Positions 4,787 through 18,449 of a stretch of DNA of 32,666 nucleotides are shown here, piece by piece (positions within the stretch are counted from its first letter, which is position 1; each line of letters begins with the position of its first letter). The notes beneath the pieces were generated by a model that was not told the DNA's origin, ran no database searches, and saw only the letters and a list, made by a program, of their open reading frames with translations. This DNA is from Myxococcales bacterium (lineage in GTDB: Bacteria; Myxococcota_A; UBA9042). The stretch spans positions 1-32,666 of the forward strand of contig JBBISH010000076.1 in NCBI GenBank assembly GCA_037441385.1, in the 5' to 3' direction. A program made the translations under genes and the position numbers.

Positions 4787-6385
4787 TCATCGACCGCTGC
4801 ACGCTTGAGAAACGGCCGGCACATCGGCCAGTTCACGGGCCAGCAAGCGCATGAAATCGCCAGCCAACTGCGGCTCGCCGGCCAACGTGGCGGATTGTTC
4901 GAGCCAAACCAGCTCTTGCCGCAGCGTCTTGGGGTTGGGCCCGGCCTGTTGCGCCAGCGCACAGACCCGCTCTTGCCGGGCCACCAGCGCCGCCGCAGCG
5001 TCCAGGCCATCCAGGTGCTGCAAGCACGCGCGGGCACAGCGATCGCGCAGTGGGCCCACATGCACTGCCAGGGCCAGCGCCGCCACGGCGTCCGGCTCGC
5101 TGGCCAGCGCTTCGGCCAACCACTCGGGGTCGTCGTCCACGATGGCCCGCTCGATCAAGCCGCGCCGCAGCGTGGGCCACTGCCGCGTGTTGGCCGCCCG
5201 CCGCGCCCAGTGATACCACGCAAGCACGGGTCGCTTCTCGAACGCCCACAGCGCAATTTCGACCGCGGTCGTCGGCTCGGCCGCCGTGAGCGCCGCCTCC
5301 AAACCCAGGGCCCACAGCGGGCCGCGCGGGTCGTACCATCCCACCAGGCGCTGCAGGTCGCGAGTGCGGCCAGTCTGACCCAATTGCATAGCCAGCGCGC
5401 CCAGATGCGTGCGCCCAGGCCCCCACGCCAGCGCCAGCTCCAACGCTTGCTCGACCTCGCCCGCGGCCAAGCGCAGCCCGCCCACCTGATCCCACAGCAG
5501 GTCGCGGCCACCCAATTGGTCCGTCTCGCGCCAGTGGTTGCTGCCGGCTTGCGCCGACCACGCCAGCAGTTTGGTGGCAAGGCGCTCGGCCAACTCATTG
5601 CGTCGGGTTGCCTGACGGGCCAACGCCACCGCCACGGCCGGGGCAAGCTGCGGCGGCCCGTCGATCGCCACGTCGAAAAGCTGATCAAGCACGGCGTCTT
5701 GCATGTTGATCTCGGCGTGGTCCAGCACCGCGACCAGTTGCTGCAGCGCCGGCTCCGCCCCGCTGGGCAGGGGCACGAACACGACTTTGCGCACGCTCAG
5801 GGCCGACATGAGCCGCGTCGCCCACACCAGGGCCGGCTGCGGTTGTTCGCGCGCCGCCTCGGCAATCCGCTCGATCAAGCTGCGCAGGTCGGCCAATTCC
5901 TGCTCGCCCGGCCGCAGCGATTGCCGCCAAGTCAGCGCCACCAGGTCCACGCTGGCCTCGATCGGCAGCCGCTCGTGGGTCCGCAAGATGCGCAGGCCGG
6001 GATCGCGCGCCTCCGAGCGCACTTGCATGCGCTGCTTCAGCGCCCCCATCACCAGGTCCTGGGTCCGTGCCGACTCCGCCACGGCCCTGGCCTTGCGCTG
6101 CAGCTCGACGAGCGCCGCCACGGCGTGCGGACAGCGACGAACTCCACAGGAACACTGGCTTTGCACGGTGCCATCGGCGAGCAACAGCTCGACACTCTCG
6201 ACCACCGGCGGCGCATGCACCGTGGCGCTCCAGCCGTCGCCCTGCGGCACCAGCCGGCCCAAGTGCCCTGCCCGCTGCAGTTGCATCCCCGCAACGCTGT
6301 GCTTGGCCCCGGCCCAGGCCAAGGTCGACAGTCCGCTCAGCGCGGGCGCCCAAGCCAGCAGGCGGTTGCGCTCGTCGCTACCCAT
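4787..6385 (-). CDS. SWIM zinc-finger domain protein
   Basis: CSCGVRRCPHAVAAL (CxC-x4-CxH) near the N-terminus, followed by a long helical region. ATG abuts the upstream TAG. Confidence 0.8.
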   Translation of the reverse strand: MGSDERNRLLAWAPALSGLSTLAWAGAKHSVAGMQLQRAGHLGRLVPQGDGWSATVHAPPVVESVELLLADGTVQSQCSCGVRRCPHAVAALVELQRKARAVAESARTQDLVMGALKQRMQVRSEARDPGLRILRTHERLPIEASVDLVALTWRQSLRPGEQELADLRSLIERIAEAAREQPQPALVWATRLMSALSVRKVVFVPLPSGAEPALQQLVAVLDHAEINMQDAVLDQLFDVAIDGPPQLAPAVAVALARQATRRNELAERLATKLLAWSAQAGSNHWRETDQLGGRDLLWDQVGGLRLAAGEVEQALELALAWGPGRTHLGALAMQLGQTGRTRDLQRLVGWYDPRGPLWALGLEAALTAAEPTTAVEIALWAFEKRPVLAWYHWARRAANTRQWPTLRRGLIERAIVDDDPEWLAEALASEPDAVAALALAVHVGPLRDRCARACLQHLDGLDAAAALVARQERVCALAQQAGPNPKTLRQELVWLEQSATLAGEPQLAGDFMRLLARELADVPAVSQACSGR

Positions 6386-6616
6386 CTACTTGTCCCGCCG
6401 GGGCGCGCAAGGCGACGCCAGTTCGCACTGCAAAATGTGCGCGATTTCCCTTTGACAGGTACCACCACACGGCCCGCAACCCGCGAACGTCGCGTCGAAA
6501 ATCATCGCCATCGAGCGCGCACCGCCGGCGATCGCCGCGACGATCTCCGAGCGCCGCACGTTGTTGCAGCAGCAGATGACCGGATCGGCGCGGTTTTTCT
6601 GGCGCGGGTCAGGCAT
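6386..6616 (-). CDS. BFD-like [2Fe-2S]-binding protein
   Basis: VICCCNNV...EIVAAI...T.AG.GPCGGTC pattern. Overlaps the DHH stop by 8 nt. Confidence 0.85.
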   Translation of the reverse strand: MPDPRQKNRADPVICCCNNVRRSEIVAAIAGGARSMAMIFDATFAGCGPCGGTCQREIAHILQCELASPCAPRRDK

Positions 6617-7643
6617 GGCCCTCTGTGTCCAGGTGGATCCCCAACTGGTCCACCAGCGCGGCCTGCAGCTGCGCCACCACCTGCGCGCACACTTGCTCGA
6701 TGTCGCCCGTCACGGTGGCACCGGCGGCGTGATCGTGACCGCCACCGCGCAACGCCTTGGCTACATGACCGATTTTTACGGCCGCCTTGGACCGGAACGA
6801 CAGCTTCCACTCACCCGGCTGGCGGCCCGGCTTGGCGATCAGCGCGATCAGCACGCCGTCGATGCCGATGAACGTGGGGATGAGCTCGCCAAAGGCGTCG
6901 GCAGCCAGATCGAGCCCGTCGCCGACTTCTTGCGGCAGGATCGCCCAGGCGATGCGACCGCCCGCCGAAAATCGCTGCCGGTTCAAGGCCCTTCCCAAGA
7001 GCGTGACCTCGTCGCGCGGCCGGCTGGCAAACAGGGCCTCTTGGATCGGGTTGGTGTCGATGCCCGTATCCAAAAGGGCGGCGGCCACGCGCAACGTGTC
7101 GCCCTGATTGCGCAAAAAGCGGAACGAGCCCGTGTCGAAGCTCATCGCCGCGTACAGGGGCGCTGCCACGTCCGCGTCGATGGGCCAACCCAGCGCCTCG
7201 GTCAGCCGGTAGACCAACTCGCCGGACGAAGAAAACTCCGGTGCAATCACACCTTGCAAGTCCAGGGCCGGATCACTTGGGTGATGGTCGACCACCCACA
7301 GCGGGATCCCCAGGGCGCGCAACCGCTCGGCCGGGCGCTTGGCGCGATCGATCTCGTGGGCGTCGAAAATCAGCCCCAACTCTGCGGTGGCGCAGTCGCC
7401 GGCGGCCGTGTCGAAGTCGGCAATGCGACCCTTGGGGTCCATCCAGGAATAGCGCGGCGGGCACGGGTCTTCATTGACGATGTGCGCCTGTCGGCCGGCC
7501 AGCTCGGCGGCACGGGCAAAAGCGAGCTGCGCCCCCAGACCATCGGCATCGGGGCCGACATGGGTCATCAGGCAAAAGCGAGTAGTCTGCTGCAATCGCT
7601 GCAGAAACCACGGTTCAAACGGGTACCCGGACAACTGCCGCAC
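6609..7643 (-). CDS. nrnA: DHH/DHHA1 phosphoesterase (NrnA-like oligoribonuclease/pAp phosphatase)
   Basis: THVGPDADGLG, IFDAH, VDHHP, DTGSF, SFRS and GGGHDHAAG motifs. Start placed at GTG 7643 after GAGG; GTG 7649 is an alternative. Confidence 0.9.
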   Translation of the reverse strand: MRQLSGYPFEPWFLQRLQQTTRFCLMTHVGPDADGLGAQLAFARAAELAGRQAHIVNEDPCPPRYSWMDPKGRIADFDTAAGDCATAELGLIFDAHEIDRAKRPAERLRALGIPLWVVDHHPSDPALDLQGVIAPEFSSSGELVYRLTEALGWPIDADVAAPLYAAMSFDTGSFRFLRNQGDTLRVAAALLDTGIDTNPIQEALFASRPRDEVTLLGRALNRQRFSAGGRIAWAILPQEVGDGLDLAADAFGELIPTFIGIDGVLIALIAKPGRQPGEWKLSFRSKAAVKIGHVAKALRGGGHDHAAGATVTGDIEQVCAQVVAQLQAALVDQLGIHLDTEGHA

Positions 7644-7775
7644 ATCCACCTCGCGGGCCAACTGAGGGCCCAGGGGCAGAGCATCGCAGATTCGCGGGGA
7701 TCGCGCCAAGCGGCGGTGGTCGCCGAGCCGCGACAATGCTAGGCTTTGTCGTGCAGTTGTGGGCAAGGAGCCAGC

Positions 7776-8462
7776 GTGGACAAGTTGGGCAAGCTGTTCG
7801 AGCAGGGCGGACCGACCCTGTACGTGATTGCCGCAGTCGCGGCCCTGGGTTGCGGGCTGTTCATCGAGCGCTTCTTTGCCGTGCGCGGGCTGGTGCAACA
7901 GGCGCGGGCGGTCGATCGGCGTCTGCGCGACCTGACCGCCGCGGGCAACGTCGCCGACGTGCTGGCTGCCTGCAATCGTGCGCCGTCGGGCCTGGCGACG
8001 GTGTTGACGCGCGGTGTAGAGGCGGCGCTGCGCCGCGAGCCCGCCGAGTTGCTGTTTGCACAGATGACCCGCGAAGGTCGCCGGCTGGTGATGGACATTC
8101 GCCGCGGCCTGGGCCTGCTCGCCACCTTGGGCACGATGTCGCCGTTCTTGGGCCTGTTCGGCACCGTGCTGGGCATCATGGCGGCGCTCAAGAAGATCGG
8201 CGAAACGGGCGTGAGCGGCCTGGACGTGGTGGCCGGCGGCGTGGGCGAAGCGCTGGTCGACACGGCGGCCGGCATCCTGGTGGCGATCTGTATGGTGCTG
8301 CTGCACCAGATCCTCAAGGCGCGGATGGCCAAGGCGGTGCTCGAGATCCAGATCTTGGTCGAAGACGCCGCCGACGATTTTGCCCGTCTGGGTCCGCAGA
8401 TCGGCAAGGCCGCCGAAACCGCCCCCGCCACGGAGGCCGCACGTGCGCAATCCGCAGGGTGA
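7776..8462 (+). CDS. MotA/TolQ/ExbB proton-channel protein (set 1)
   Basis: AAGGAG then GTG 7776. Three TM segments, SPFLGLFGTVLGIM and GVGEALVDTAAG motifs. Confidence 0.92.
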   Translation: MDKLGKLFEQGGPTLYVIAAVAALGCGLFIERFFAVRGLVQQARAVDRRLRDLTAAGNVADVLAACNRAPSGLATVLTRGVEAALRREPAELLFAQMTREGRRLVMDIRRGLGLLATLGTMSPFLGLFGTVLGIMAALKKIGETGVSGLDVVAGGVGEALVDTAAGILVAICMVLLHQILKARMAKAVLEIQILVEDAADDFARLGPQIGKAAETAPATEAARAQSAG

Positions 8463-8901
8463 TTGGGGCGAGTCGCCCGAGCTAGACGCTGGCGAGGCGG
8501 TGGAGCTGAACCTGACGTCGCTGGTCGACGTGGTGCTGGTGCTGCTCGTCACCTTCATGGTCTCGACGTCGGCCATCGTCGACCGCGATCGCGCCCAACA
8601 AGCGCAAGGCCAGGTGGATCTGCAGCTGCCCACAGGTTCTACGCCCACCACCCAAGTGGCCCACGCCGAGGTCACGGTCCAGGTCGACGCCGACGGCCAA
8701 CTCTTTGTGAGTGGCCAGCCCACCGAATGGCGGTCGCTGACCAAGGATCTGGTAGAAAAACTGGCGAAAGACGGCGAGTTGCAGGTGCGGGTCGACGCGG
8801 ACCAGCGTTTGCCGGTACAAAAGGCCGTAGAGGTGCTGGAGCAGCTGCAGGGTCTGGGGATCCACAACGTGGGCTTGGGCACCAAAGGCAAGGCGCAATA
8901 G
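8443..8901 (+). CDS. ExbD/TolR family protein (set 1)
   Basis: ELNLTSLVDVVLVLLVTFMV with the essential TM Asp, and VDAD. GTG 8443 overlaps the exbB 3' end; the start is approximate. Confidence 0.9.
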   Translation: MRNPQGDWGESPELDAGEAVELNLTSLVDVVLVLLVTFMVSTSAIVDRDRAQQAQGQVDLQLPTGSTPTTQVAHAEVTVQVDADGQLFVSGQPTEWRSLTKDLVEKLAKDGELQVRVDADQRLPVQKAVEVLEQLQGLGIHNVGLGTKGKAQ

Positions 8902-8932
8902 GTCGTTGCGTGGCGCCGCGGGGGAGTGGAGC

Positions 8933-9973
8933 ATGTCGACGCCTGACGGGAACCGCCGCCTCAAAGCCATCATGTTCACCGACATCAAGGGCTACTCCTC
9001 GATGATGGGCCAGGACGAGGCCCGTACCGTCAAGGCCGTGCTAGAACATCGCGAGATCGTGCGCGAGTGCCTGGCCCGCCACGACGGCGAAGAGCACGAG
9101 ACCATCGGCGACGCGTTTGTGGTGCTGTTCGATTCGGTGGTGAACGCCGTGCGCTGCGGTGCGGACATCCAAGCCCACTTGGCCGAGCGCAACAGCAAAC
9201 TGCCGCCCGAAGAGCAGGTCTGGCTGCGCATCGGCATCCACCTGGGCGACATCATCCTGCAGGGCGACGGCATCTACGGCGACGGCGTCAACGTGGCGGC
9301 GCGCGTCCAAGACAAGGCCGAACCGGGCGGCATTTCGATTACCGAACAGGTCTTTTTGCAGATCGATGGCAAGGTGGACCTGCCGATCGAGGCACAGGGC
9401 AAGGTCGACCTGAAGAACATCCGCAACCCGCCCAGCCTGTATCGCCTCAAGCTCGACGGCACCAAGGCCGCGCCACACGACCCGCCGGCGCACAAGCAGC
9501 CTTGGTGGCTGGTGATTTTGCTGGCGGTGCTGGCCGTGGGCGGCGCCGGCATGTGGTACTTGGTGGGGCGTGCCGCGCCCGCGCCTGCGCCCGTGCCCAC
9601 GCCGGTGGTCATCCAGACGGCCGCACCGGTGGCACCGGCGGCCACTGCGCCTGCGGGGGACGAAAGGCGCGCTGCCGCCGGCCGCAAAATCAACGCCGCC
9701 ATGGCCGCTCAGGGCCAGGCCCGGATCGACCTGCTCCGCGAGGCATTGGCACTCGACCCCGAGAACGCCGCAGTGCAGAATATGTTGGCAATGGCCATGG
9801 CCAACGCCGCGGGGCCCAGCGCAGCGCCCCCGGCCGCCAGCACGGCAACCGCAGCGCCGGCGGCCCCATCGGCGGCCAGTGCCCCAGCGGTCAAGGCAAC
9901 GGCGCCACGCGCCAAGGCGGGCGGAAATGTCGAAGGCGAAACCCGAATCAAGCGCGCGACCGTGGTCGATTAG
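8933..9973 (+). CDS. Membrane-anchored class III nucleotidyl cyclase, probably guanylyl-cyclase type
   Basis: IMFTDIKGYS (Asp17), ETIGDAF (Glu56, Asp60), LRIGIHLGD, GIYGDGVNVAAR (Gly113, Asn120, Arg124), LKNI. Followed by a TM helix, Pro/Ala linker and a TPR-like ALALDPEN segment. Confidence 0.9.
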   Translation: MSTPDGNRRLKAIMFTDIKGYSSMMGQDEARTVKAVLEHREIVRECLARHDGEEHETIGDAFVVLFDSVVNAVRCGADIQAHLAERNSKLPPEEQVWLRIGIHLGDIILQGDGIYGDGVNVAARVQDKAEPGGISITEQVFLQIDGKVDLPIEAQGKVDLKNIRNPPSLYRLKLDGTKAAPHDPPAHKQPWWLVILLAVLAVGGAGMWYLVGRAAPAPAPVPTPVVIQTAAPVAPAATAPAGDERRAAAGRKINAAMAAQGQARIDLLREALALDPENAAVQNMLAMAMANAAGPSAAPPAASTATAAPAAPSAASAPAVKATAPRAKAGGNVEGETRIKRATVVD

Positions 9974-10856
9974 GCGTAGCACGGCGGCGGTGGCCTTGGC
10001 GCTGGCCCTTGCGCAAGTCCTGATGGCGCCGCTGGCCTGGGCTGGCGAGGCCAAACCGATGGGGAGCAAGCAGGCCGCGGCCAAGATCAAAGAAGAAGCC
10101 GCGGCCATCAGCCAGGTCGCCGAAGAAAAGAACAACGCGGGCGATTTTGCCATGTGCGGCGAGCTGTTCCAAAAGGCCTACCGCTTGGATCCCAGCTACT
10201 TGGGTTACTTGTTCAGCGCCGCTCGCTGCGAGCAAAAGGCCGGCCAGCTCGACGCCGCCGAGCGCGACTATCGCCAGTTCATCGCGCGCACGCCGCCCGG
10301 CGACAAGCTGGCAGAAAAGGCCAAGAAGTACCTGGACGAAATCCTGGAAGAGCGCAAGAAGGCGCCGCCAGCGGACGTCAAACCGGCCGACAGCAAACCC
10401 GAGGAAGTCAAACCCGCCGTGACCAAGCCGGCCGAGGTCAAGCCCGCAGAAGGCGACGCAGCGACTCCAGAAGTGACCGTGCCCAAGGCCGCGGAACCCA
10501 AAGTTCCGCAGCAAGTCTGGATGACGGTGATCGGCGGTGCCACACTGGCCGTAGTCGGCGTGGCGCTGATTGGGATCGGCGCGGCGCAGCGCGCGAATTT
10601 GCAGGCAGATTTGACCGCGCAGAGCGATGGTGGTTTGATTACCAGCACAACGCCCGCAGCGGCCCGCGATCGCGAATCCAGTTACCGGACCGCGATGTAC
10701 AGCGGCGCGGCGTGCGTGGCCCTGGGCGCAGCGGCCACCGGTTTCGGGCTTTGGTTGTGGCATGCCGAGCCCGCGCCGCCAGCAGAGGGTGTCAAAGCGG
10801 CCCGGCTTTGGCTTGCGCCCACCCTGAATGGCGCGCAGCTTGGGATCACGTTCTAG
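9927..10856 (+). CDS. Secreted/membrane TPR-repeat protein
   Basis: Signal-like AAVALALALAQVLMAPLAWA, TPR FQKAYRLDP..YLFSAARCEQKAG, VKPA repeats, two hydrophobic segments and terminal GAQLGITF. The start is uncertain (9927 or ~9990). Confidence 0.8.
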   Translation: MSKAKPESSARPWSIRRSTAAVALALALAQVLMAPLAWAGEAKPMGSKQAAAKIKEEAAAISQVAEEKNNAGDFAMCGELFQKAYRLDPSYLGYLFSAARCEQKAGQLDAAERDYRQFIARTPPGDKLAEKAKKYLDEILEERKKAPPADVKPADSKPEEVKPAVTKPAEVKPAEGDAATPEVTVPKAAEPKVPQQVWMTVIGGATLAVVGVALIGIGAAQRANLQADLTAQSDGGLITSTTPAAARDRESSYRTAMYSGAACVALGAAATGFGLWLWHAEPAPPAEGVKAARLWLAPTLNGAQLGITF

Positions 10857-10886
10857 CGGCATTCTTGTGAATTGGAGCGAAGTTGC

Positions 10887-12203
10887 ATGTTTGCACGTTC
10901 GACCGGCGCGACCCATCCAGGCTTGGTGCGCACTGAAAATGCCGACGGCTTTGTGGCCGACGATCATTGCGGCCTGTACGTGGTGGCAGACGGGGCTCGG
11001 GGTGCCGCCGGTGAGTTCGCCGCGCGCCTGTTTCTGCAGGGAGCCGAGCAGCAAGCCGCACACCTGGCACAAGTCGCCGCCGCGGCCCTGCGCGACAGCG
11101 ATCCCGGCCGTGGTCGCCGGGCCGTGCTCGACGCGCTGACCCAGTTGTTTCAGAACATCAACGCCGAGATCTACAACTGGGCCCACGACCGGGCCGAACT
11201 GCGCGGGGCCTCGACCACGGCCACGTTGGCGCTGTTGGATGGTCGGGGCGCGTACATCGCCCATGTTGGTGACTCGCGGCTGTATTTGCAGCACGGCGTG
11301 GAGCTGCGGCAGCTGACTGCCGACCACACCATGGCCGAAGAGCTGATTCGCCTGGGCCAGCTAAAGCGGGACGAGGCCGACGGTTTCCGCTACCGGGGTG
11401 TGGTGAGCCGCATCCTGGGCGAGCGCGCGTTGTGCCGCCCAGACCTGGCGTACATCGACGTCACGCCGGGTGCCCACTTGCTGCTGTGCAGCGATGGCCT
11501 GACCGACTACGTCCCTGATCGCGATCTGGTGTCGCTGCTGAGCCGGCCGGCCCAGGACCTGAGCCAGCCGCTGGTGGACTTGGCGCTGCGCAATGGCGGC
11601 GGCGACAACGTGACGGCCGTGGTGGTGACGATCGCGCCGACCAGCGAGCCGCGCACCGTGGTCTCGACCGTGCCAGGCACGTTCCAAGCCACGCAGAACT
11701 TGGACCTGTTGGCAGGCCTCAGCTTCTGTCAGCACCTGTCGCGCGACGAGCTGATGAAGGTGCTGCGCTACGTGCACGAGGTGCAACTGCTCCCGGGCGC
11801 AGTGGTTTTCCGCGAAGGCGAAGAGGGGCAGGATCTGTTCCTGGTGGTCAGCGGGTCGCTGCAGGTCGAAGTGGGGCGTCAGCCAGTCAACCAGTTGGGC
11901 CCCGGCGCACATTTTGGCGAGATCGCTCTAGTTTCCGGCCAGCCGCGCTCGGCCACGGTGGTGGCCAAAGAACCGACCCGCCTGCTGCGTTTGTGCCGCG
12001 AGGACTTCTATGACCTGAGCCAGCGCGACCAGGGCGTGGCGGTCAAAATCCTTTGGTCGTTCGCCCAGACCTTGGCGGGCCGGGTGACGGGGCTATCCAA
12101 AGAAGTCGCCGAGTTCAAGAAGCACGGCATCGCGCTCTCCGCGGACCACACCATGGACGTCAAGATGATCCACGTGCCGCGGAGCCCAGCTGAAAAGAAA
12201 TAG
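10887..12203 (+). CDS. PP2C (PPM) Ser/Thr phosphatase fused to a C-terminal cyclic-nucleotide-binding domain
   Basis: GLVRTENAD, VVADG, AHVGDSRLY, LLCSDGL and GGGDNVT, then VFREGEEG and FGEIALVSGQPRSATV phosphate-binding cassette. Confidence 0.93.
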   Translation: MFARSTGATHPGLVRTENADGFVADDHCGLYVVADGARGAAGEFAARLFLQGAEQQAAHLAQVAAAALRDSDPGRGRRAVLDALTQLFQNINAEIYNWAHDRAELRGASTTATLALLDGRGAYIAHVGDSRLYLQHGVELRQLTADHTMAEELIRLGQLKRDEADGFRYRGVVSRILGERALCRPDLAYIDVTPGAHLLLCSDGLTDYVPDRDLVSLLSRPAQDLSQPLVDLALRNGGGDNVTAVVVTIAPTSEPRTVVSTVPGTFQATQNLDLLAGLSFCQHLSRDELMKVLRYVHEVQLLPGAVVFREGEEGQDLFLVVSGSLQVEVGRQPVNQLGPGAHFGEIALVSGQPRSATVVAKEPTRLLRLCREDFYDLSQRDQGVAVKILWSFAQTLAGRVTGLSKEVAEFKKHGIALSADHTMDVKMIHVPRSPAEKK

Positions 12204-12209
12204 CGGGAG

Positions 12210-12294
12210 CTAGGAGCCTGTCGGCAAAATGGGCGACACGACATGTCCATTTAGTTATACATTATGATCTTATTGGGTGCCGCCAGTCTCCTAG
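12210..12294. mobile_element. MITE-like element with CTAG flanks
   Basis: CTAG-GAGCCTGTCGGCA ... TGCCGCCAGTCTC-CTAG: 11/13 terminal inverted repeat, CTAG on both sides, AT-rich interior. Confidence 0.55.
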
Positions 12295-12309
12295 CCTTTT
12301 TCGTTTGTC

Positions 12310-12359
12310 CAACTGGCCGAAAATCGCCCGAAGTGAATTCGTGCGATTTCAGCCAGTTG
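12310..12359. repeat. Imperfect palindrome/hairpin
   Basis: CAACTGGCCGAAAATCGCCCGAA versus reverse complement of the right arm CAACTGGCTG-AAATCGCACGAA. Confidence 0.6.
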
Positions 12360-12379
12360 CCGCCGCGCAAGACGCGGCG

Positions 12380-12416
12380 CTAGGATTGTGCCGGGATTAT
12401 CCCGACACGCTCCTGG
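12380..12416. repeat. Short palindrome related to the 12210 element ends
   Basis: CTAGGATTGTGCCGGGA-tta-TCCCGACACGCTCCTGG (13/17). The reverse complement of the right arm, CCAGGAGCGTGTCGGGA, matches CTAGGAGCCTGTCGGCA at 14/17. Confidence 0.5.
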
Positions 12417-12509
12417 AGAGCGGATCAATTAAGACTTTCTCCGTACATCCGAACCTTCGAACTCGGCGCGGCGAGTCGCTGAAGGCGCTCGTTTGCGCCC
12501 CACTTGGGG

Positions 12510-12571
12510 CTAGAGACGCGGCCGGAAGATGTAGTTACTGAACAAATGAGCAGTAATTGGTCGCGTCTCTA
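12510..12571. repeat. Palindromic element anchored on the rel TAG stop
   Basis: TAGAGACGCGGCC versus reverse complement of the right end TAGAGACGCGACC (12/13), plus inner TTACTG/CAGTAA stem. The right arm contains the rel stop codon. Confidence 0.6.
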
Positions 12572-14833
12572 CCCGCGCAACCGCTCGACCCGCGACACGC
12601 CCTTGATCCGCCCCAGCGACGAGATGACGCCGTTGAGTTGGCTGACGTTGTTCACCATGACCTCGAAGTCGTTGATCGCACGGCGTCCGTCGATGACCCG
12701 GCAGTGCGCGGCCTGGATGTCGACCCCGGACTCGGTAAAGCGCTGGCTCATCGCTGCCAAAAGACCAGGCGTGTTCTCGGTGTAGACGCGCACGGTCACC
12801 ACTGCGCCGCTGCCGGTGTCCGTATTCCAGCCGCAGTCCAAGCGCCGCATCGCGTCGGCTTCTAGCACCTTGGGGCAGCCGCGCTGGTGCACGGTGATGC
12901 CGCGGCCGCGGGTGACGACGCCGATGACCGGATCGCCCGGAACCGGCGAACAGCACTTGCCAAAACGCACCAGCACGTCGTCCAGGCCGTCCACAACGAT
13001 GGTGGCGCCGCTGGTCTTTTGCTTGCGCGGCCGTTTGATCGCCTCGGCAATCGCATCGGGCTCGGCCGGCTTGGCGGTGGGGAACAGCGTCTGGGCCGCC
13101 TTGTCGGCATCGGCCTTGCCAAAGCCGATGGCCACCAGCAGGTCTTCCCAGCTCGACACGCCGGCCGACGCCAGCACTTCGGCCAGCTTTTCGTGCTCTT
13201 GCGCGCGGGCCATCGAACACTTGAGGCGGCGGAGCGCCTTTTCCAGCAGGTCACTGCCGATCTCGTGGGCACGGGTGCGCTGCTCGGCGTGGACAAAGGC
13301 GCGGATGCGGTTCTTGGCCTTGGCGGTCGCGACAAATTCCAACCAGTCTTGGCTGGGTTGCGCGTCTTGCCGGGTCATGATGTCCACGACGTTGCCGTTG
13401 CGCAGCTGGTGGCGCAGCGGGACGATCACGCCGTCGACCTTGGCGCCGACGCAGCGCTCGCCCACCTTGCCGTGGATGGCAAACGCAAAATCCACCGGCG
13501 TAGCGCCGCGCGGCAGCACCTTGACGTCGCCCTTGGGCGTAAAGGTGTAGACCTCGTCGTTGAAGAGGTCGACCTTCATCGTCTCCAAGAACTCGTCCGA
13601 GTCCTTGACGCCCGTGTGCCACTCCAAGAGCTGCTTCAGCCAGGCAAAGCGCTCTTCGTCGCGCAGCCGCAGCGACTCGCCGCGCTCTTTGTACTTCCAG
13701 TGCGCCGCCACACCTTCCTCGGCGAAGCGGTGCATATCGTGGGTGCGAATCTGCACTTCGATGCGCTCGGCGCGCGGGCCGATCACCGCCGTGTGCAGCG
13801 ACTGGTAGCGGTTCGACTTGGGCAGTGCGATGTAATCCTTGAAGCGCCCCGGGATCGGCTTCCAATGGCCGTGCACCGCGCCCAGCGCCTGGTAGCACTC
13901 CTTGACGTCATTGACCAAGATGCGGAAGCCCTGGGCGTCGTAGATCTGCTCGTACGGCACCTTGCCCTTCTCCATCTTGTGCCAGATGCCGTACAGGTGC
14001 TTGGGGCGGCCGTACACGCTGGCGTGGCCAAGGCCCTCGGTTTCCATCAGTTCGTGGATCTCGGCCACCACTTCGTTGACGTAGGCCTGCCGCTCGGCCT
14101 GGCGCTGACCCACGGTAAAGGCAAGTTGCCGATACTCTTCGGGATACAGGTGGCGGAAGCACAAGTCTTCCAGCTGCGCCTTCATCCAGCCGATGCCCAG
14201 GCGATTGGCCAGCGGGCTATAGATCTCGGTGGTTTCTTGGGCGATGCGTTTCTGACTCTCGGGCTTCATGTGCTCGAGCGTCGTCATATTGTGCAGTCGA
14301 TCCGCCAGCTTGGTCAGCAACACGCGGATGTCGCGCGACATGGCCACGAGCATCTTGCGGAAGTTTTCGGCCTGTTTGTGCTCCTGGCTGGAGAACTTGA
14401 TTTTGTCGAGCTTGGTCACCCCATCGACAATCAGCGCGATTTCAGGGGTAAAGCGGCGCGAGATCTCCTCGATCGTGACCACCGTGTCTTCGGCGACGTC
14501 GTGGAGCAGGCCAGCGCAGACCGATGCCACGTCCAGCCGCAGGCGCGTGAGCAAAAATGCTACAGCGACCGGGTGGGCAAAGTACGGCTCGCCGCTCTTG
14601 CGAAACTGACCGCCGTGGCTGTGGGCCGCAAAGGCGTAGGCGCGGCGCAACATGGCGAAATCGCTGTCGGGTAGGTAACTCCGCAGCGTCGCAACGAGCT
14701 CTTCGACCGTGGGTACGCCGTCGATGACAATGGGCTCGTACAGGGGGTCTTCGGCGGTCGCACTGGCAGCCAGACCAGGACCGGCACCGGCACCGTCAGC
14801 CGGCGCGACCGCTGATTCGCTAAGATCCTTCAT
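12569..14833 (-). CDS. rel: Bifunctional (p)ppGpp synthetase/hydrolase (long RSH)
   Basis: RKSGEPYFAHP, HD motif LLHDVAEDT, KLADRLHNM, RFKDYI, YQSLHT, EVQIRT, TGS (FTPKG...DFAFAIH), CCSPVPGD zinc finger and C-terminal ACT. Confidence 0.97.
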   Translation of the reverse strand: MKDLSESAVAPADGAGAGPGLAASATAEDPLYEPIVIDGVPTVEELVATLRSYLPDSDFAMLRRAYAFAAHSHGGQFRKSGEPYFAHPVAVAFLLTRLRLDVASVCAGLLHDVAEDTVVTIEEISRRFTPEIALIVDGVTKLDKIKFSSQEHKQAENFRKMLVAMSRDIRVLLTKLADRLHNMTTLEHMKPESQKRIAQETTEIYSPLANRLGIGWMKAQLEDLCFRHLYPEEYRQLAFTVGQRQAERQAYVNEVVAEIHELMETEGLGHASVYGRPKHLYGIWHKMEKGKVPYEQIYDAQGFRILVNDVKECYQALGAVHGHWKPIPGRFKDYIALPKSNRYQSLHTAVIGPRAERIEVQIRTHDMHRFAEEGVAAHWKYKERGESLRLRDEERFAWLKQLLEWHTGVKDSDEFLETMKVDLFNDEVYTFTPKGDVKVLPRGATPVDFAFAIHGKVGERCVGAKVDGVIVPLRHQLRNGNVVDIMTRQDAQPSQDWLEFVATAKAKNRIRAFVHAEQRTRAHEIGSDLLEKALRRLKCSMARAQEHEKLAEVLASAGVSSWEDLLVAIGFGKADADKAAQTLFPTAKPAEPDAIAEAIKRPRKQKTSGATIVVDGLDDVLVRFGKCCSPVPGDPVIGVVTRGRGITVHQRGCPKVLEADAMRRLDCGWNTDTGSGAVVTVRVYTENTPGLLAAMSQRFTESGVDIQAAHCRVIDGRRAINDFEVMVNNVSQLNGVISSLGRIKGVSRVERLRG

Positions 14834-15092
14834 GGGTTAGGGGTCCTCCCCGGCTGCCGAACCAAAGGCCTGTGCGGGCGGGAGTTCGGCGCGCTCCCGC
14901 ACCCCCAGCTTGCATACGTTCGGGCCGCCTGTCACCATTTTCGCCGCGACCGAGTCCTGCGCTCGCTCAATCGTGCGGCCAATGGAGCGGCAAAACGCGG
15001 CGCAACCTTGTTCGGCCTGCGCTCATCCAATCATTTGGGCCGCCCGAACCGGGCCATGCCCAGCCCCCATGGGCGACCAGGGAAACAGGAAA

Positions 15093-15755
15093 ATGACCGA
15101 AAGACTTGCAGTTTTCTTCGATCAGGTGGGTGCCGAGTGGGTGCTGTGGCTGCTCATGGTGCTGGCGATCGGGTCGATCGCGGTGACGATCGAGCGACTT
15201 CTGTTCCTGTGGCAAAATCGGACACCGATCGGTGATCTGGAGCCGAAGCTGCTCAAGGCCCTGGATCGCTCGCCGGCCGAGGCGATGGCCTTGCTCAAGC
15301 CATACCAGGGCATGGAAGCCCGCGTGGTGCTTGCCGGTTTGCAGGAAATGCATCGCGGGCCCGAAGCGGTGCAAGAAGTCATGAACGCCGTGATCGCCGT
15401 GGAGCGCAAGCGCTACGAACGGTTCTTGATCTACCTGTCGTCGCTAGGCGCCAACGCCCCGTTCATCGGCCTGCTGGGCACCGTCATCGGAATCTTGGGC
15501 GCGTTTGCGAACTTGAAGCAGCAGGTGGGCGCGGGAGGTTCGCGACAGGCGCTGATCATGGGCTCGATCTCGGAGGCGTTGGTCGCGACCGCGGTGGGCC
15601 TGTTCGTGGCGATTCCTGCTGTCATTGCCTACAACTGGCTCCGCACGCAGGTGAAGAACACGGTGATGAACACCGACGCCCTGGAAGCGATCCTGATGGC
15701 GCACCTGAAGACCGCGCCACAGGGCAAGGCGGCTAGCTCGGCCAAGGGGGACTAG
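15093..15755 (+). CDS. exbB: MotA/TolQ/ExbB proton-channel protein (set 2)
   Basis: AGGA RBS then ATG 15093. NAPFIGLLGTVIGI and ISEALVATAVGLFVAIPA motifs. Confidence 0.92.
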   Translation: MTERLAVFFDQVGAEWVLWLLMVLAIGSIAVTIERLLFLWQNRTPIGDLEPKLLKALDRSPAEAMALLKPYQGMEARVVLAGLQEMHRGPEAVQEVMNAVIAVERKRYERFLIYLSSLGANAPFIGLLGTVIGILGAFANLKQQVGAGGSRQALIMGSISEALVATAVGLFVAIPAVIAYNWLRTQVKNTVMNTDALEAILMAHLKTAPQGKAASSAKGD

Positions 15756-15758
15756 ATC

Positions 15759-16184
15759 ATGGCTGGGAAAATGAGCAGCGACGACGATGTGTTGTCGGAG
15801 ATCAACGTCACGCCGCTGGTCGACATCATGCTGGTGCTGCTGATCATCTTCATGCTGACTAACGAAGAAGTCAGCGAAAAGATGAAGAAAGCCCAGATCG
15901 ACATCGATCTGCCCAAAGCCGCAAGTGCCGAGCAGAAACCGAGCAAGCCGCTGTCGATCGTGGTGAGCAAGGAAGGCAAGCTGTTCTTGAATGGCAATCC
16001 CGTGGATGCGCTGGGGCTGCAGCAGGCCGTCAAGGTGGCGGTGGCCGAAAACCCGGGGATCGAAGCGATCTTGTCGGCCGATCGGCGCGTCAGCCATGGC
16101 GACGTGGTGCGGGTGATCGACCAAGTTCGCCAGATGGGCGTCGAAAAGGTGGCGGTCAATACCAAGGAGCAAGAGATCGAGTAG
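15759..16184 (+). CDS. exbD: ExbD/TolR family protein (set 2)
   Basis: SEINVTPLVDIMLVLLIIFM, IDLPKA, ILSADRRVSHGDVVRVID. Confidence 0.95.
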   Translation: MAGKMSSDDDVLSEINVTPLVDIMLVLLIIFMLTNEEVSEKMKKAQIDIDLPKAASAEQKPSKPLSIVVSKEGKLFLNGNPVDALGLQQAVKVAVAENPGIEAILSADRRVSHGDVVRVIDQVRQMGVEKVAVNTKEQEIE

Positions 16185-16217
16185 CAGGAGCCGGCCAGCC
16201 GGCAGCAGGGAACAATC

Positions 16218-17027
16218 GTGGATCGCAACTTGGTATCAGGTCTGGTGTTTTCGCTGGTCGCCCACGCCGTGGCGGCTTGGTGGATCATGGGCCTGCAGCC
16301 GCGGCCGCGCCCGCCGGTCGAGCCCGAAAAGAAGGCCGTGCGGACGGTCCAAGAGCAGGTGCAGCTGCCAAAGCCGCCCAAGCCACCCAAACCGCCTGAG
16401 CCGCCCAAGGAGGAGCCCAAGGCCCAGGCCGAAGCGCCCAAGGCGGACACGCCGGCGCCGCAGCCCAAGCCGCAAGCCAAGCGGCCGCCGCAGGCCAAGA
16501 CCGCGGAGCCCAAGGCGGAAGCGCCCAAGCCGAACAACGAACCCGCGCCGCTGGTGCTGTCCAAGACCTACGGCAGCGGCGGCGACGAGGGCGTGGCCGT
16601 GCAAACGGGCAAGGACGACGTCTTGGGCGATCCCAGTGTAGAGGCGAACGAAAACAATGTGCGGCGGCGGCCCACCACCGACCCGGTCGACAACAGCGAA
16701 CCGGCACCCGACACGGGCGTCAAGGGACCCGAGCCGGCCAAGGTCGAGATCGTCCTGGCCAAGCCGAAGATCGCCAACTGCGAAGGTTTTGTGACGTGGC
16801 CGGAGGGCGCGCCAGCCAGCGGCCGGGTGGTGCGCGTGGTGTTGCTGCTCGACATCGGCGCCGACGGGGCGGTCAAGAAGACGCGAATCCTGAAGGGCGC
16901 CGGCCAACCATTTGACGACGAAGCACAAAAGGGCATCCGTCGCTGCCCGTTCCAACCGGGCACGCGCGACGGGAAACCCATTTCGACCAAGGTGGGTTTC
17001 GAGGTAGAATTCAAGCCGACGAACTAG
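16218..17027 (+). CDS. tonB: Energy transducer TonB family protein
   Basis: N-terminal TM with SLVAH (SxxxH), Pro/Lys-rich linker, TonB_C domain (V.LLLDIGADGAV...FDDEA...FQPGTRDGKP). Confidence 0.9.
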   Translation: MDRNLVSGLVFSLVAHAVAAWWIMGLQPRPRPPVEPEKKAVRTVQEQVQLPKPPKPPKPPEPPKEEPKAQAEAPKADTPAPQPKPQAKRPPQAKTAEPKAEAPKPNNEPAPLVLSKTYGSGGDEGVAVQTGKDDVLGDPSVEANENNVRRRPTTDPVDNSEPAPDTGVKGPEPAKVEIVLAKPKIANCEGFVTWPEGAPASGRVVRVVLLLDIGADGAVKKTRILKGAGQPFDDEAQKGIRRCPFQPGTRDGKPISTKVGFEVEFKPTN

Positions 17028-17066
17028 CGAGTGCGGCGGGCTCTGGGGACGCAGCGAGGGATAGCG

Positions 17067-18449
17067 ATGGGCAACAGCGGGCAATGCCAGGGCAATTACA
17101 GGCGGGGCAACCGCACAGCCTGGGTCCGGCTGGAACTGCTGGAACGGCTGTCACGGCTGTCACGGCCAGCACTGCTGTCACGGCCAGCACTGGTGGCACT
17201 GCTGGCACTGCTGGCACTGCTGGCACTGATCAGCCTGTCCGCTTGCACCGACGACTTTGAACCGGCCTATCGGATCAGCAAGTTGCGGGTCTTGGGCGTC
17301 AAAGCCACGCCGCCCGAGGTTCACCTGGACAGCGCCACCGACCTGACCATGCTGGTGGCAAGTCCGCGTCCCGATGCACAACTGTGCTACGCGTGGGCCT
17401 TTTGCCCCTTTGCCTGGGCCAAGGACGGCAACTACAAGTGCTTGGACCCCGACCTGCAAGTGGACCTGGGCACCGGCGCCACGGCCACGGTCACGATCGC
17501 CACGCTGATGCAGTCACTGGCCAACGCCCCGGCCGTGTTCAAGAAAATGGGTATGGACATGCCCAGCGGTAGCTCGGCGGCCCCGGATCTGGGATGCATC
17601 CCGGGTGGCAAAGTAGTGGCAGGTGCGGGCGTGGGCGGCTTCTCTACAGGTTCGGTGCCGGATTTCTACGTGCTGTTCCAGGTCGGCGAGATCGGCGCGT
17701 ACGGCGGCACTTGCCCGACCAAGGCCTCTGCAATGCTGTCCAAGATCTGCGGCGACCGCAGCAACTGCTTGGCGGGCTTCAAGCGCCTGGGCTTGGCCCC
17801 CATGACCGGAAGTTGCCCGGCGTTTGACGCAAACAAGGAGCCGGTTTGTGCAAAGACTCCGGCCAGTTGCGCCTATGTCCCCGAGTGCGGCTGCGACGGC
17901 AAGACCTACAGCAACGCCTGCGAGCGCGCGGCCGCCAAGGTCAGCAAGAGCTACGATGGCGAGTGCCGTTCGGTCAACCAGAATCCCGAGTTGCAGGGCA
18001 TCGGGCTCCGCGTGCCGGCGGTGGACGTAGCGGCCGACGTGTCGCGCGGCGTGGCCTGGCCAGAGGACGTGACCCCCGTGCTGGCACCGGGCAGTACGGT
18101 CCAGTTCTGGCCCCAGTGGGATCCCAGTCAAATTCAGGTGATCGGCCCCTCTAGCGACCCGACCGTGAAGGAGCCCGTCAAAGAAACGTTGTTGTTCTCG
18201 TGGTTCAGCGAAGCCGGCGACTTCAGCGAGGTCAAGACCTGGCACGGCAAGCCACAAGTCGACTACACCGCCCCCAGCTTGGCCGCGACCGAGACCAGCA
18301 AAATCGTGCCGATCTGGCTGGTGGTGCGTGACGAGCGCAACGGCACGGGCTGGCTGCGCAGGCAGGTGCGCATCGAGAAAGGCGCCACCTTGAAGCAGAA
18401 TCCGGTGTGCATCGCCGCGCCGACGGCGGCAGGCTGCAAGGCGCCGTAG
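17067..18449 (+). CDS. Lipoprotein with an inserted Kazal-like Cys domain
   Basis: LISLSA|C lipobox, C.DDFEP...LRVLGVKATPPE N-terminus, PECGCDGKTYSNAC...YDGEC Kazal pattern, C-terminal WLVVRDERNGTGW. Confidence 0.8.
   Translation: MGNSGQCQGNYRRGNRTAWVRLELLERLSRLSRPALLSRPALVALLALLALLALISLSACTDDFEPAYRISKLRVLGVKATPPEVHLDSATDLTMLVASPRPDAQLCYAWAFCPFAWAKDGNYKCLDPDLQVDLGTGATATVTIATLMQSLANAPAVFKKMGMDMPSGSSAAPDLGCIPGGKVVAGAGVGGFSTGSVPDFYVLFQVGEIGAYGGTCPTKASAMLSKICGDRSNCLAGFKRLGLAPMTGSCPAFDANKEPVCAKTPASCAYVPECGCDGKTYSNACERAAAKVSKSYDGECRSVNQNPELQGIGLRVPAVDVAADVSRGVAWPEDVTPVLAPGSTVQFWPQWDPSQIQVIGPSSDPTVKEPVKETLLFSWFSEAGDFSEVKTWHGKPQVDYTAPSLAATETSKIVPIWLVVRDERNGTGWLRRQVRIEKGATLKQNPVCIAAPTAAGCKAP
17130..17228 (+). 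repeat. 9-bp in-frame tandem repeat (11 units) in the signal peptide
   Basis: ctggaactg/ctggaacgg/ctgtcacgg x2/ccagcactg/ctgtcacgg/ccagcactg/gtggcactg/ctggcactg x3. Confidence 0.9.

Follow-up and report, generated by a model that had tools for sequence, protein, structure and literature searches.

A candidate envelope-sensing guanylyl cyclase module adjoining a cNMP-domain PP2C phosphatase in a Myxococcales genome

We analyzed a 32,666-nucleotide stretch of DNA (the window) from the Myxococcales genome GCA_037441385.1, contig JBBISH010000076.1, in which five near-contiguous genes on the plus strand encode ExbB, ExbD, a class III nucleotidyl cyclase, a TPR-like membrane protein and a PP2C phosphatase with a C-terminal cyclic nucleotide-binding (cNMP) domain. 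Comparison with related genomes reveals that this arrangement is young and is the product of a recent joining of units, among which only the cyclase and TPR genes are always found together. The conserved core is comprised of the cyclase and its TPR partner, and a periplasmic-binding lipoprotein, encoded elsewhere in this genome, belongs with them. We propose, with a probability of about 0.5, that the cluster contains an envelope-sensing, probably cGMP-forming cyclase module that has recently been joined by its cNMP-gated phosphatase reader.

A preliminary description of the locus had presented the five genes as a self-contained system, which the gene neighborhoods do not bear out. We searched 41 related genomes with the phosphatase and with the cyclase, fetched up to 6 kb on each side of the anchor gene and mapped the window proteins onto these flanks (genomes, contigs and loci carry our G, C and L numbers). 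All the genomes are draft assemblies, including that of the window (G000, 90.9% complete, of which the window is contig C76 of 221); several absences fall in genomes that are 58–84% complete, and the flanks are short at L036, L188, L189 and L015. The five-gene order was found at 2 of 20 PP2C loci, in the closest relatives G005 and G007 (89–95% identity). At 15 other orthologue loci (36–59% identity) ExbB, ExbD and the TPR protein were absent beside the phosphatase, as was the cyclase, except for a weak match of 23% identity to an unrelated HAMP-cyclase in L042. Neither ExbB/ExbD nor PP2C lies near the cyclase at any of the 12 other cyclase loci, and around the 13 other ExbB/ExbD loci none of the cyclase, TPR and PP2C genes was found. 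A metagenome scan gave 80 cyclase loci, among which a single 90%-identical contig (L223) carries ExbB-ExbD-cyclase-TPR. Most of these matches are distant short cyclases (36–47% identity) of the Glu-type, that is, with Glu at the position of the adenylyl cyclase Lys, and have no TPR partner. Every locus that repeats the order is at least 85% identical to the window, while in the other genomes each of the three units occupies a contig of its own. Beyond the window, the combination of cyclase, PP2C-cNMP and ExbB/ExbD was found in G005 and G007 only. In a further metagenome contig (L230, 4986–5962), a cNMP-binding domain is encoded directly 5' of, and in the same direction as, a related short cyclase of the Glu-type, which could be a fused or coupled reader-writer.

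The cyclase has an N-terminal cytoplasmic catalytic domain, one membrane helix and an Ala/Pro-rich extracytoplasmic tail, and a hydrophobic stretch aligns at the position of the helix in every orthologue. Its nearest solved relatives are 3mr7 and Ma1120 (E-values of 1e-29 to 1e-17). We mapped the specificity residues through the PDB alignments to Ma1120, taking the residue numbering from PMC4215837. The versions of Ma1120 in the PDB differ at exactly K101, D157 and A167, and the window counterparts of these residues are E56, G113 and A123. The guanylyl cyclase-type residues of the preliminary description are therefore real, with Glu56 and Gly113 mapping onto K101 and D157, and both are conserved in 15 of 15 cyclase orthologues. 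The metal-binding Asp residues D17 and D60 are invariant among 14 sequences, together with E56, G113 and the transition-state residues N120 and R124, and the homodimer-type set of residues is present in one chain. Guanylyl cyclases carry Glu in place of the Lys and Cys, Ser, Thr, His, Ala or Gly in place of the Asp; Cya2 has the Glu-Gly pair, and K101E/D157G was the best guanylyl cyclase among the Ma1120 double mutants (PMC4215837). With Glu and Gly replacing Lys and Asp, the product of the window cyclase is probably cGMP, possibly alongside cAMP. Two of the 15 cyclase domains in the window genome are Glu-type, the other 13 being Lys-type.

The TPR protein had been put forward as the partner of the cyclase, and here the gene neighborhoods agree. 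Its gene adjoins the cyclase at all 11 of the relatives' loci with room for it, as well as at L031 and L037 (G005 and G007), and an overlap of 40–47 nt between the 3' end of the cyclase gene and the 5' end of the TPR gene recurs across genera. In the window this dual-coding stretch spans 9927–9973, where the last 13–15 cyclase codons overlap the first TPR codons in another frame; the same is seen in L051–L057 and in every genus examined. Both products are conserved within the overlap, the cyclase as TRIKRxxVVE and the TPR N-terminus as P-x-SSA. Because the TPR gene begins within the same nucleotides, part of the TRIKRxxVVE conservation may be due to this double use.

The TPR protein is organized as a signal/anchor helix, a helical repeat domain with two conserved Cys, a Pro/Lys-rich linker, a membrane helical hairpin and a short C-terminal β-hairpin. 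We used AlphaFold2 to predict its structure, which has a mean predicted local distance difference test score (pLDDT) of 73.3, rising above 90 for residues 47–145, the periplasmic domain in which the two Cys are invariant. The matches listed by Foldseek are nearly all TPR domains (two are designed transmembrane proteins), with a best E-value of only 2.3e-3, and the YbgF TPR domain (2xev) superposes on the predicted domain at 1.7 Å over 86 columns. The TPR sequence profile stays below its threshold (TPR_2, 18.4 bits against a cut-off of 27; 23.5 bits for the G003 orthologue), and the TPR label is based mainly on the predicted fold rather than on sequence. Complex modeling, which the preliminary description had suggested, gave a weak pass. 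The cyclase tail (residues 238–346) with the TPR domain (residues 46–150) scored 0.33, graded "weak support", compared to 0.00 for the best of three controls, and the runs showed contact agreement of at least 55% and a partner pLDDT of at least 74. Of 157 solved complexes, 116 reach this mark, as do 2 of 215 mismatches; at scores of 0.60 or below, it is reached by only 18 of the 157 solved complexes and by both passing mismatches. That the C-terminal peptide of the cyclase might be a ligand of the TPR domain is offered as an idea only.

The earlier parts list was not complete as a circuit, since it overlooked the binding lipoprotein. The gene for this protein (Peripla_BP_6/ANF_receptor; PF01094/PF13458) lies directly 3' of the cyclase-TPR pair in G013, G017, G020, G021 and G023 and, judged by coordinates, within ~2 kb of the cyclase on the same contig in G105 and G106. 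The window genome encodes an orthologue (50–56% identity) on contig C59, and no cNMP reader was found among the neighbors of that gene. The binding protein is present in 17 of 17 cyclase-positive genomes of the family compared to 1 of 20 cyclase-negative genomes. On a RelA tree, six of seven independent pairs show the binding protein and the cyclase changing in the same way and none shows the opposite (p = 0.031); only four independent pairs are left for this test among genomes at least 88% complete.

Next to this core, the phosphatase unites a PP2C domain and a complete cNMP cassette in one protein, as had been claimed. The Pfam profiles for PP2C (E-value of 3.8e-14, 53.4 bits against a cut-off of 20.3) and cNMP_binding (E-value of 5e-22, 78.1 bits against 27.5) both match, as does the NCBIfam Stp1/IreP PP2C profile (E-value of 6.4e-50). 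The metal-binding PP2C motifs (NxD, DG, GDSR, SDG and GxxDN) are kept, with N18, D20, D35, G36, D129, D203, D240 and N241 invariant among 13 sequences. The DGxGG motif (10986–11000) has drifted within the subclade of the window, reading DGARG in the window and DGSSG, DGVAG, DGSGV or DGANV elsewhere, with the catalytic Asp unchanged; deeper branches of the PP2C clade retain DGVGG. The complete cNMP cassette reads FGEIALVSGQPRSATV, and its phosphate-binding core, FGEIALVSGQPRSAT, is invariant at the residues given in Table 1. The cassette sequence Arg-Thr-Ala occurs only in the orthologues L042 (G031) and L044 (G015), which both lie beside other Glu-type cyclases, and the other aligned orthologues have Arg-Ser-Ala. 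A Thr/Ser hydroxyl at this site favors cGMP in PKG, which is not decisive here. Among solved structures, the PP2C part is related to tPphA, and the cNMP part to PKG, PKA-R, Epac and MlotiK1, which are no guide to the ligand because all four match.

The phosphatase orthologues form a clade that is set apart from PP2C-cNMP paralogues with 99% support in the SH-like approximate likelihood ratio test (SH-aLRT). Such paralogues (~33% identity) are carried by every genome. A profile search of the genome contigs with the PP2C alignment returned, among the matches listed, paralogues of up to 38% identity and PP2C-only proteins, and the named genomes among the listed paralogue matches are Myxococcota/Polyangia metagenome-assembled genomes. 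We looked for conserved neighbors of the PP2C orthologues as possible substrates or kinases and found none.

The association between the phosphatase and cyclases extends to genomes of two further genera, where the cyclases are unrelated to that of the window. A hidden Markov model scan of 28 PP2C loci detected a cyclase at four only, namely L031 and L037 of the window lineage, L044 (G015) and L042 (G031). In G015, a VUPS-cyclase gene lies upstream of the phosphatase gene, the two overlapping by 4 nt, and in G031 a HAMP-cyclase gene is convergent to the phosphatase gene at a distance of 55 nt. These cyclases both carry Glu at the Lys position and Ala or Gly at the Asp position. Glu-type cyclase domains make up 2/15 of those in G000, 3/21 in G015 and 2/6 in G031, which gives a chance of ~0.006 that all three PP2C-neighbor cyclases would be Glu-type. 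Across 107 genomes of the class, the PP2C orthologue occurs in 24 and the cyclase in at least 18, with both in 17. We regard the juxtapositions as moderate, indirect support for a functional tie between Glu-type cyclases and this PP2C-cNMP clade. The earlier claim that the nucleotide made by the cyclase controls the phosphatase is strengthened to this extent, whereas the adjacency of this particular cyclase is found in one lineage only. Beside the second Glu-type cyclase of the window genome (contig C27) no cNMP reader was found. Elsewhere in G015, a cyclase domain (L161, C23, 6155–6730) has Glu and Cys, the pair typical of eukaryotic guanylyl cyclases.

ExbB and ExbD are a different case. The scores of ExbB against the NCBIfam tolQ/exbB models are far under the equivalog cut-offs (83 against 221 bits), and ExbD adjoins ExbB at 13 of 13 relatives' loci, overlapping it by 20 nt in the window if its start is the GTG at 8443. 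The proton motor had been suggested to control the cyclase. In an ExbB search of 25 genomes, the pair was found in all 16 of the family genomes searched, 7 of which lack the cyclase. We therefore read the link to the cyclase as most likely a recent juxtaposition. The genes 3' of ExbB/ExbD vary by genome (glycosyltransferase/aminotransferase, CstA, carboxyltransferase or convergent ribosomal protein genes), and no TonB-type gene was found in the fetched flanks of the 13 orthologous loci. ExbB is probably co-transcribed with the cyclase module yet lies outside it. We conclude that ExbB/ExbD is probably a bystander motor, the promoter of which would now serve the inserted genes too. A second ExbB-ExbD set is found with a TonB_C protein (16185–17027) at 14910–17027, followed by a 473-residue protein without a family match, the whole region covering 14910–18449. 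This second cluster, ~7 kb downstream, looks like the complete energizer that the first ExbB/ExbD pair lacks.

Genes in the window were called from third-position GC content (GC3), open reading frames and Pfam matches, with GC3 tracking the called frames, and start codons were picked by a Shine-Dalgarno-like motif and the position at which the orthologue alignment begins. Genes in the relatives were called from GC3 and open reading frames. These calls confirm the earlier parts list, its coordinates and its co-orientation (Table 1). The probable starts, GTG for ExbB and ExbD and ATG for the cyclase, TPR protein and PP2C, each have a Shine-Dalgarno-like motif. Three of the junctions agree with the previously described gaps or overlaps of about 30 nt or less (ExbB/ExbD, −20 nt; ExbD/cyclase, +31 nt; TPR/PP2C, +30 nt), while the cyclase/TPR junction is looser, at −47 nt. 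When the cluster was scanned with a consensus for intrinsic terminators, no strong one was detected, with 7 weak 5-bp stems compared to 3.8 ± 2.6 in shuffled sequences. No sigma-70-like promoter site was found in 7300–12700, the scan being uninformative for this phylum, and Rfam and tRNA scans of the window gave no matches. The run consists of exactly five genes because it is flanked by a divergent DHH/DHHA1 gene (6609–7640, minus strand) and a convergent RelA/SpoT gene (12569–14833, minus strand).

The surroundings of the run provide several further observations. On the minus strand, 4787–7640 encodes the DHH/DHHA1 (NrnA-like) phosphoesterase and a 532-residue protein of no family, both divergent to ExbB/ExbD. 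A divergent DHH gene is found 5' of ExbB/ExbD at 5 of 13 loci in other genera (L070–L074), with the 532-residue protein also linked in L071–L073; in other species of the window's own genus the two genes are unlinked to ExbB/ExbD. The spacer between the PP2C and RelA/SpoT genes (12204–12568) is 365 nt long, lower in G+C and without an Rfam match, and the same gene pair in G005 is separated by ~20 nt. Large secreted-looking proteins with Dicty_CTDC (Dictyostelium-type Cys-rich) repeats are encoded at 210–2477 of the window and near several relatives' loci in this family.

Table 1 Features of the five-gene cluster, with positions in the window
Feature	Position	Strand	Basis
ExbB/TolQ-type proton-channel protein	7776..8462	+	PF01618 MotA_ExbB, E-value 2.6e-26; AAGGAG 5 nt before GTG start
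ExbD/TolR-type protein, membrane Asp in LVDVV	8443..8901	+	PF02472, E-value 3.1e-26
Class III nucleotidyl cyclase, 346 residues	8933..9973	+	PF00211, E-value 1.3e-18, 67.7 bits against cut-off of 21.9
Codon of Glu56 (Lys in adenylyl cyclases)	9098..9100	+	aligned to Ma1120 K101
Codon of Gly113 (Asp in adenylyl cyclases)	9269..9271	+	aligned to Ma1120 D157
Single membrane helix of cyclase, residues ~191–212	9503..9568	+	hydrophobic stretch WWLVILLAVLAVGGAGMWYLV in translation
Helical motif AAGRK...LLREALALDPxNAAVQ in cyclase extracytoplasmic tail	9677..9802	+	conserved in 12 of 13 orthologues reaching the region; missing from L058
Cyclase C-terminal peptide TRIKRxxVVE/D	9941..9970	+	in 13 of 13 complete orthologues; within overlap with TPR gene
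Exported TPR-like membrane protein, 309 residues	9927..10856	+	gene adjacency, AlphaFold2, Foldseek
Predicted periplasmic TPR-like domain, residues 47–145	10065..10361	+	five helices with pLDDT of 91–97; block strongly conserved in 12 sequences
PP2C Ser/Thr phosphatase with C-terminal cNMP-binding domain, 438 residues	10887..12203	+	PF00481, PF13672, PF00027
Phosphate-binding cassette, F343–T357, FGEIALVSGQPRSAT	11913..11957	+	F343, G344, E345, I346, R354 and A356 invariant in 13 orthologues

In the pathway that we propose, ExbB/ExbD, as a family-wide motor pair, would form one unit and would supply only the upstream promoter. The second unit would be the signaling pathway, with a sensor comprised of the membrane-anchored cyclase, the exported TPR-like protein and the binding lipoprotein. 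The lipoprotein may bind a periplasmic ligand and dock on both the cyclase tail and the TPR domain. From there, the signal would reach the catalytic dimer through the membrane helices, three for each protomer pair, and alter its dimerization or activity, and the Glu/Gly active site would form cGMP, perhaps with some cAMP. Finally, the nucleotide would bind to the cNMP domain of PP2C and change the Ser/Thr dephosphorylation of phosphoproteins.

Several observations weigh against this pathway. The Tyr that raises guanylyl cyclase activity in Cya2 (Ma1120 position 167) is A123 in the window cyclase, Ala being nearly invariant in its family, and Glu-type bacterial cyclases can retain adenylyl cyclase activity (PMC4215837). 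The predicted complex between the cyclase tail and the TPR domain is a weak pass only. Other points would also fit with the cyclase module and the phosphatase being accidental neighbors in separate pathways, brought together by a rearrangement that has no functional meaning, the PP2C reading cAMP from Lys-type cyclases. The cassette is Arg-Ser-Ala in the window, which does not discriminate between cAMP and cGMP, and the 13 Lys-type cyclases of the genome could equally feed the phosphatase. The adjacency of cyclase and PP2C is limited to one young lineage (G000, G005 and G007); at 21 of 26 PP2C orthologue loci the flanks that were fetched, which in some cases are short, contain no cyclase, and PP2C is next to a related cyclase at 0 of the 80 metagenome loci. 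Paralogous PP2C-cNMP genes are common and, among the matches listed, none of 14 loci with a full-length paralogue has a cyclase within 8 kb. This cyclase is missing from seven genomes that do carry the PP2C orthologue. The phyletic correlation is only suggestive (4–5 of 7 independent pairs in the same way, p = 0.06–0.125) and is not significant when incomplete genomes are left out, falling to 2 of 4 pairs for genomes at least 88% complete. The estimate of ~0.006 is post hoc and based on three events, one of which is a convergent pair. Coincidence has to account, however, for three independent juxtapositions with three cyclase architectures, all Glu-type against base rates of 13–33%, and for the presence of the PP2C orthologue in 17 of the 18 genomes in the class that have the cyclase, with no independent pair in the opposite direction. 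We judge an accidental neighborhood to be somewhat unlikely.

We consider it improbable that the five genes form one integrated envelope circuit, in which the ExbB/ExbD motor would control the cyclase via the TPR protein and cGMP would control the phosphatase. Such a circuit would agree with five co-oriented genes having junctions of at most 47 nt and no convincing internal terminator, in an order shared by G005, G007 and the metagenome contig L223. In addition, this ExbB/ExbD pair has no TonB-like gene beside it at any of 13 loci that would mark its client, and the many TPRs similar in fold to the TPR protein include the Tol-associated YbgF domain. However, the order is limited to genomes in which these proteins share at least 85% identity, the other ExbB/ExbD loci and cyclase loci are devoid of each other's genes, and ExbB/ExbD is kept in family genomes that have no cyclase. 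Furthermore, the cyclase and TPR genes of other genera form an operon by themselves, preceded by a region of their own and accompanied by the binding protein. A Pycsar-like anti-phage system, in which a cyclic pyrimidine would be made on infection and the cNMP protein would be the effector, is extremely improbable and was rejected. PADLOC gave weak matches for the cyclase, to PycC (22.7 bits, E-value of 1.2e-5), and for the cNMP domain, to the corresponding part of Pycsar TIR effectors (E-value of 3.7e-16), but these matches span only the generic cyclase and cNMP folds, and the effector module is PP2C rather than TIR or membrane-disrupting. The cyclase is also membrane-anchored with a periplasmic tail, travels with the TPR and binding proteins, and follows the species tree in one family, consistent with vertical inheritance alongside partners foreign to Pycsar, which is a mobile two-gene unit. 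A Zorya system was rejected as well, and is not indicated because neither ExbB nor ExbD has a PADLOC match.

To our knowledge, there are very few worked examples of bacterial cGMP signaling, and the known readers are CRP-type regulators. The Xanthomonas reader is reportedly a GGDEF protein, and work by Ryu et al. in 2015 is said to deal with bacterial guanylyl cyclases. Myxococcota is the phylum with the largest bacterial kinomes. If the proposed cyclase module does signal to the phosphatase, bacterial cGMP would gain a new class of output in the form of a Ser/Thr phosphatase that responds to it, and cyclic-nucleotide signaling would be joined to eukaryote-like phospho-signaling in this phylum. 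The unit of cyclase, TPR and binding protein provides a testable model for how a periplasmic signal may reach a cyclase that crosses the membrane once and has its catalytic domain at the N-terminus. Should the cyclase-phosphatase link fail, the cluster would be three ordinary signaling or transport units that are neighbors by chance.

A literature search on PP2C with cNMP and a cyclase returned no characterized bacterial example, in agreement with the earlier claim that the combination is uncharacterized. PP2C proteins with a C-terminal cNMP domain from the same phylum, Mxan4398, sce2855 and sce6950, were recorded in Myxococcus and Sorangium in 2010, with control by cAMP or cGMP proposed from the domain alone; they were catalogued only and not studied (PMC2887360). 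A search for their locus tags found nothing beyond PMC2887360. The cNMP_binding family is also listed among PP2C partner domains (PMC12088040). The best-characterized bacterial cGMP pathway, gcyB-gcyC-cgrA of Rhodospirillum centenum, likewise encodes in one operon both the enzymes that make a cyclic purine nucleotide and the protein that reads it (PMC10187061). Its reader is a CRP-family transcription factor, whereas here the reader would be a PP2C and the adjacency of writer and reader is not conserved.

We compared the cyclase to several known enzymes. Cya2 from Synechocystis PCC 6803 (2w01, E-value of 1.7e-5) shares the class III domain, the homodimer-type residues in one chain and the Glu-Gly pair, and the receptor for its cGMP awaits discovery according to PMC10187061. 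The window cyclase differs from Cya2 in having Ala for Tyr, the catalytic domain first, a membrane helix and periplasmic tail, and TPR and binding-protein partners, and it is closer in sequence to the Lys/Asp enzymes 3mr7 (Ruegeria pomeroyi) and Ma1120 (Mycobacterium avium). These are likewise short class III cyclases with a shortened dimer arm; Ma1120 is a soluble adenylyl cyclase, and its engineered Glu/Gly(/Tyr) forms gain guanylyl cyclase activity (PMC4215837). The motor pair resembles TonB-ExbB-ExbD and Tol-Pal in that its proteins belong to the ExbB and ExbD families and its ExbD has the membrane Asp, whereas the operon and the 13 orthologous loci have no TonB or TolA partner and the scores are below the equivalog cut-offs.

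Eukaryotic receptor guanylyl cyclases, such as atrial natriuretic peptide receptor 1, also combine an ANF-receptor/periplasmic-binding-protein module with a Glu-type cyclase, and a cyclase domain from such a receptor matched the window cyclase with an E-value of 5.5e-4. Here, each module would instead be a polypeptide of its own, with the TPR membrane protein linking the two, the kinase-homology domain is missing and the topology is reversed, the catalytic domain being N-terminal. We view this likeness as a functional analogy rather than as evidence of descent. As a speculative and rather doubtful extension, the cyclase, TPR protein and ANF-receptor-type lipoprotein might constitute a three-polypeptide "split receptor guanylyl cyclase", the cGMP of which would have its own readers in one clade of cNMP-gated PP2C proteins. 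Such a pathway would lead from bacterial cGMP to the dephosphorylation of proteins, and in Myxococcota this one phosphatase clade would be the common target of Glu-type cyclases that differ in architecture.

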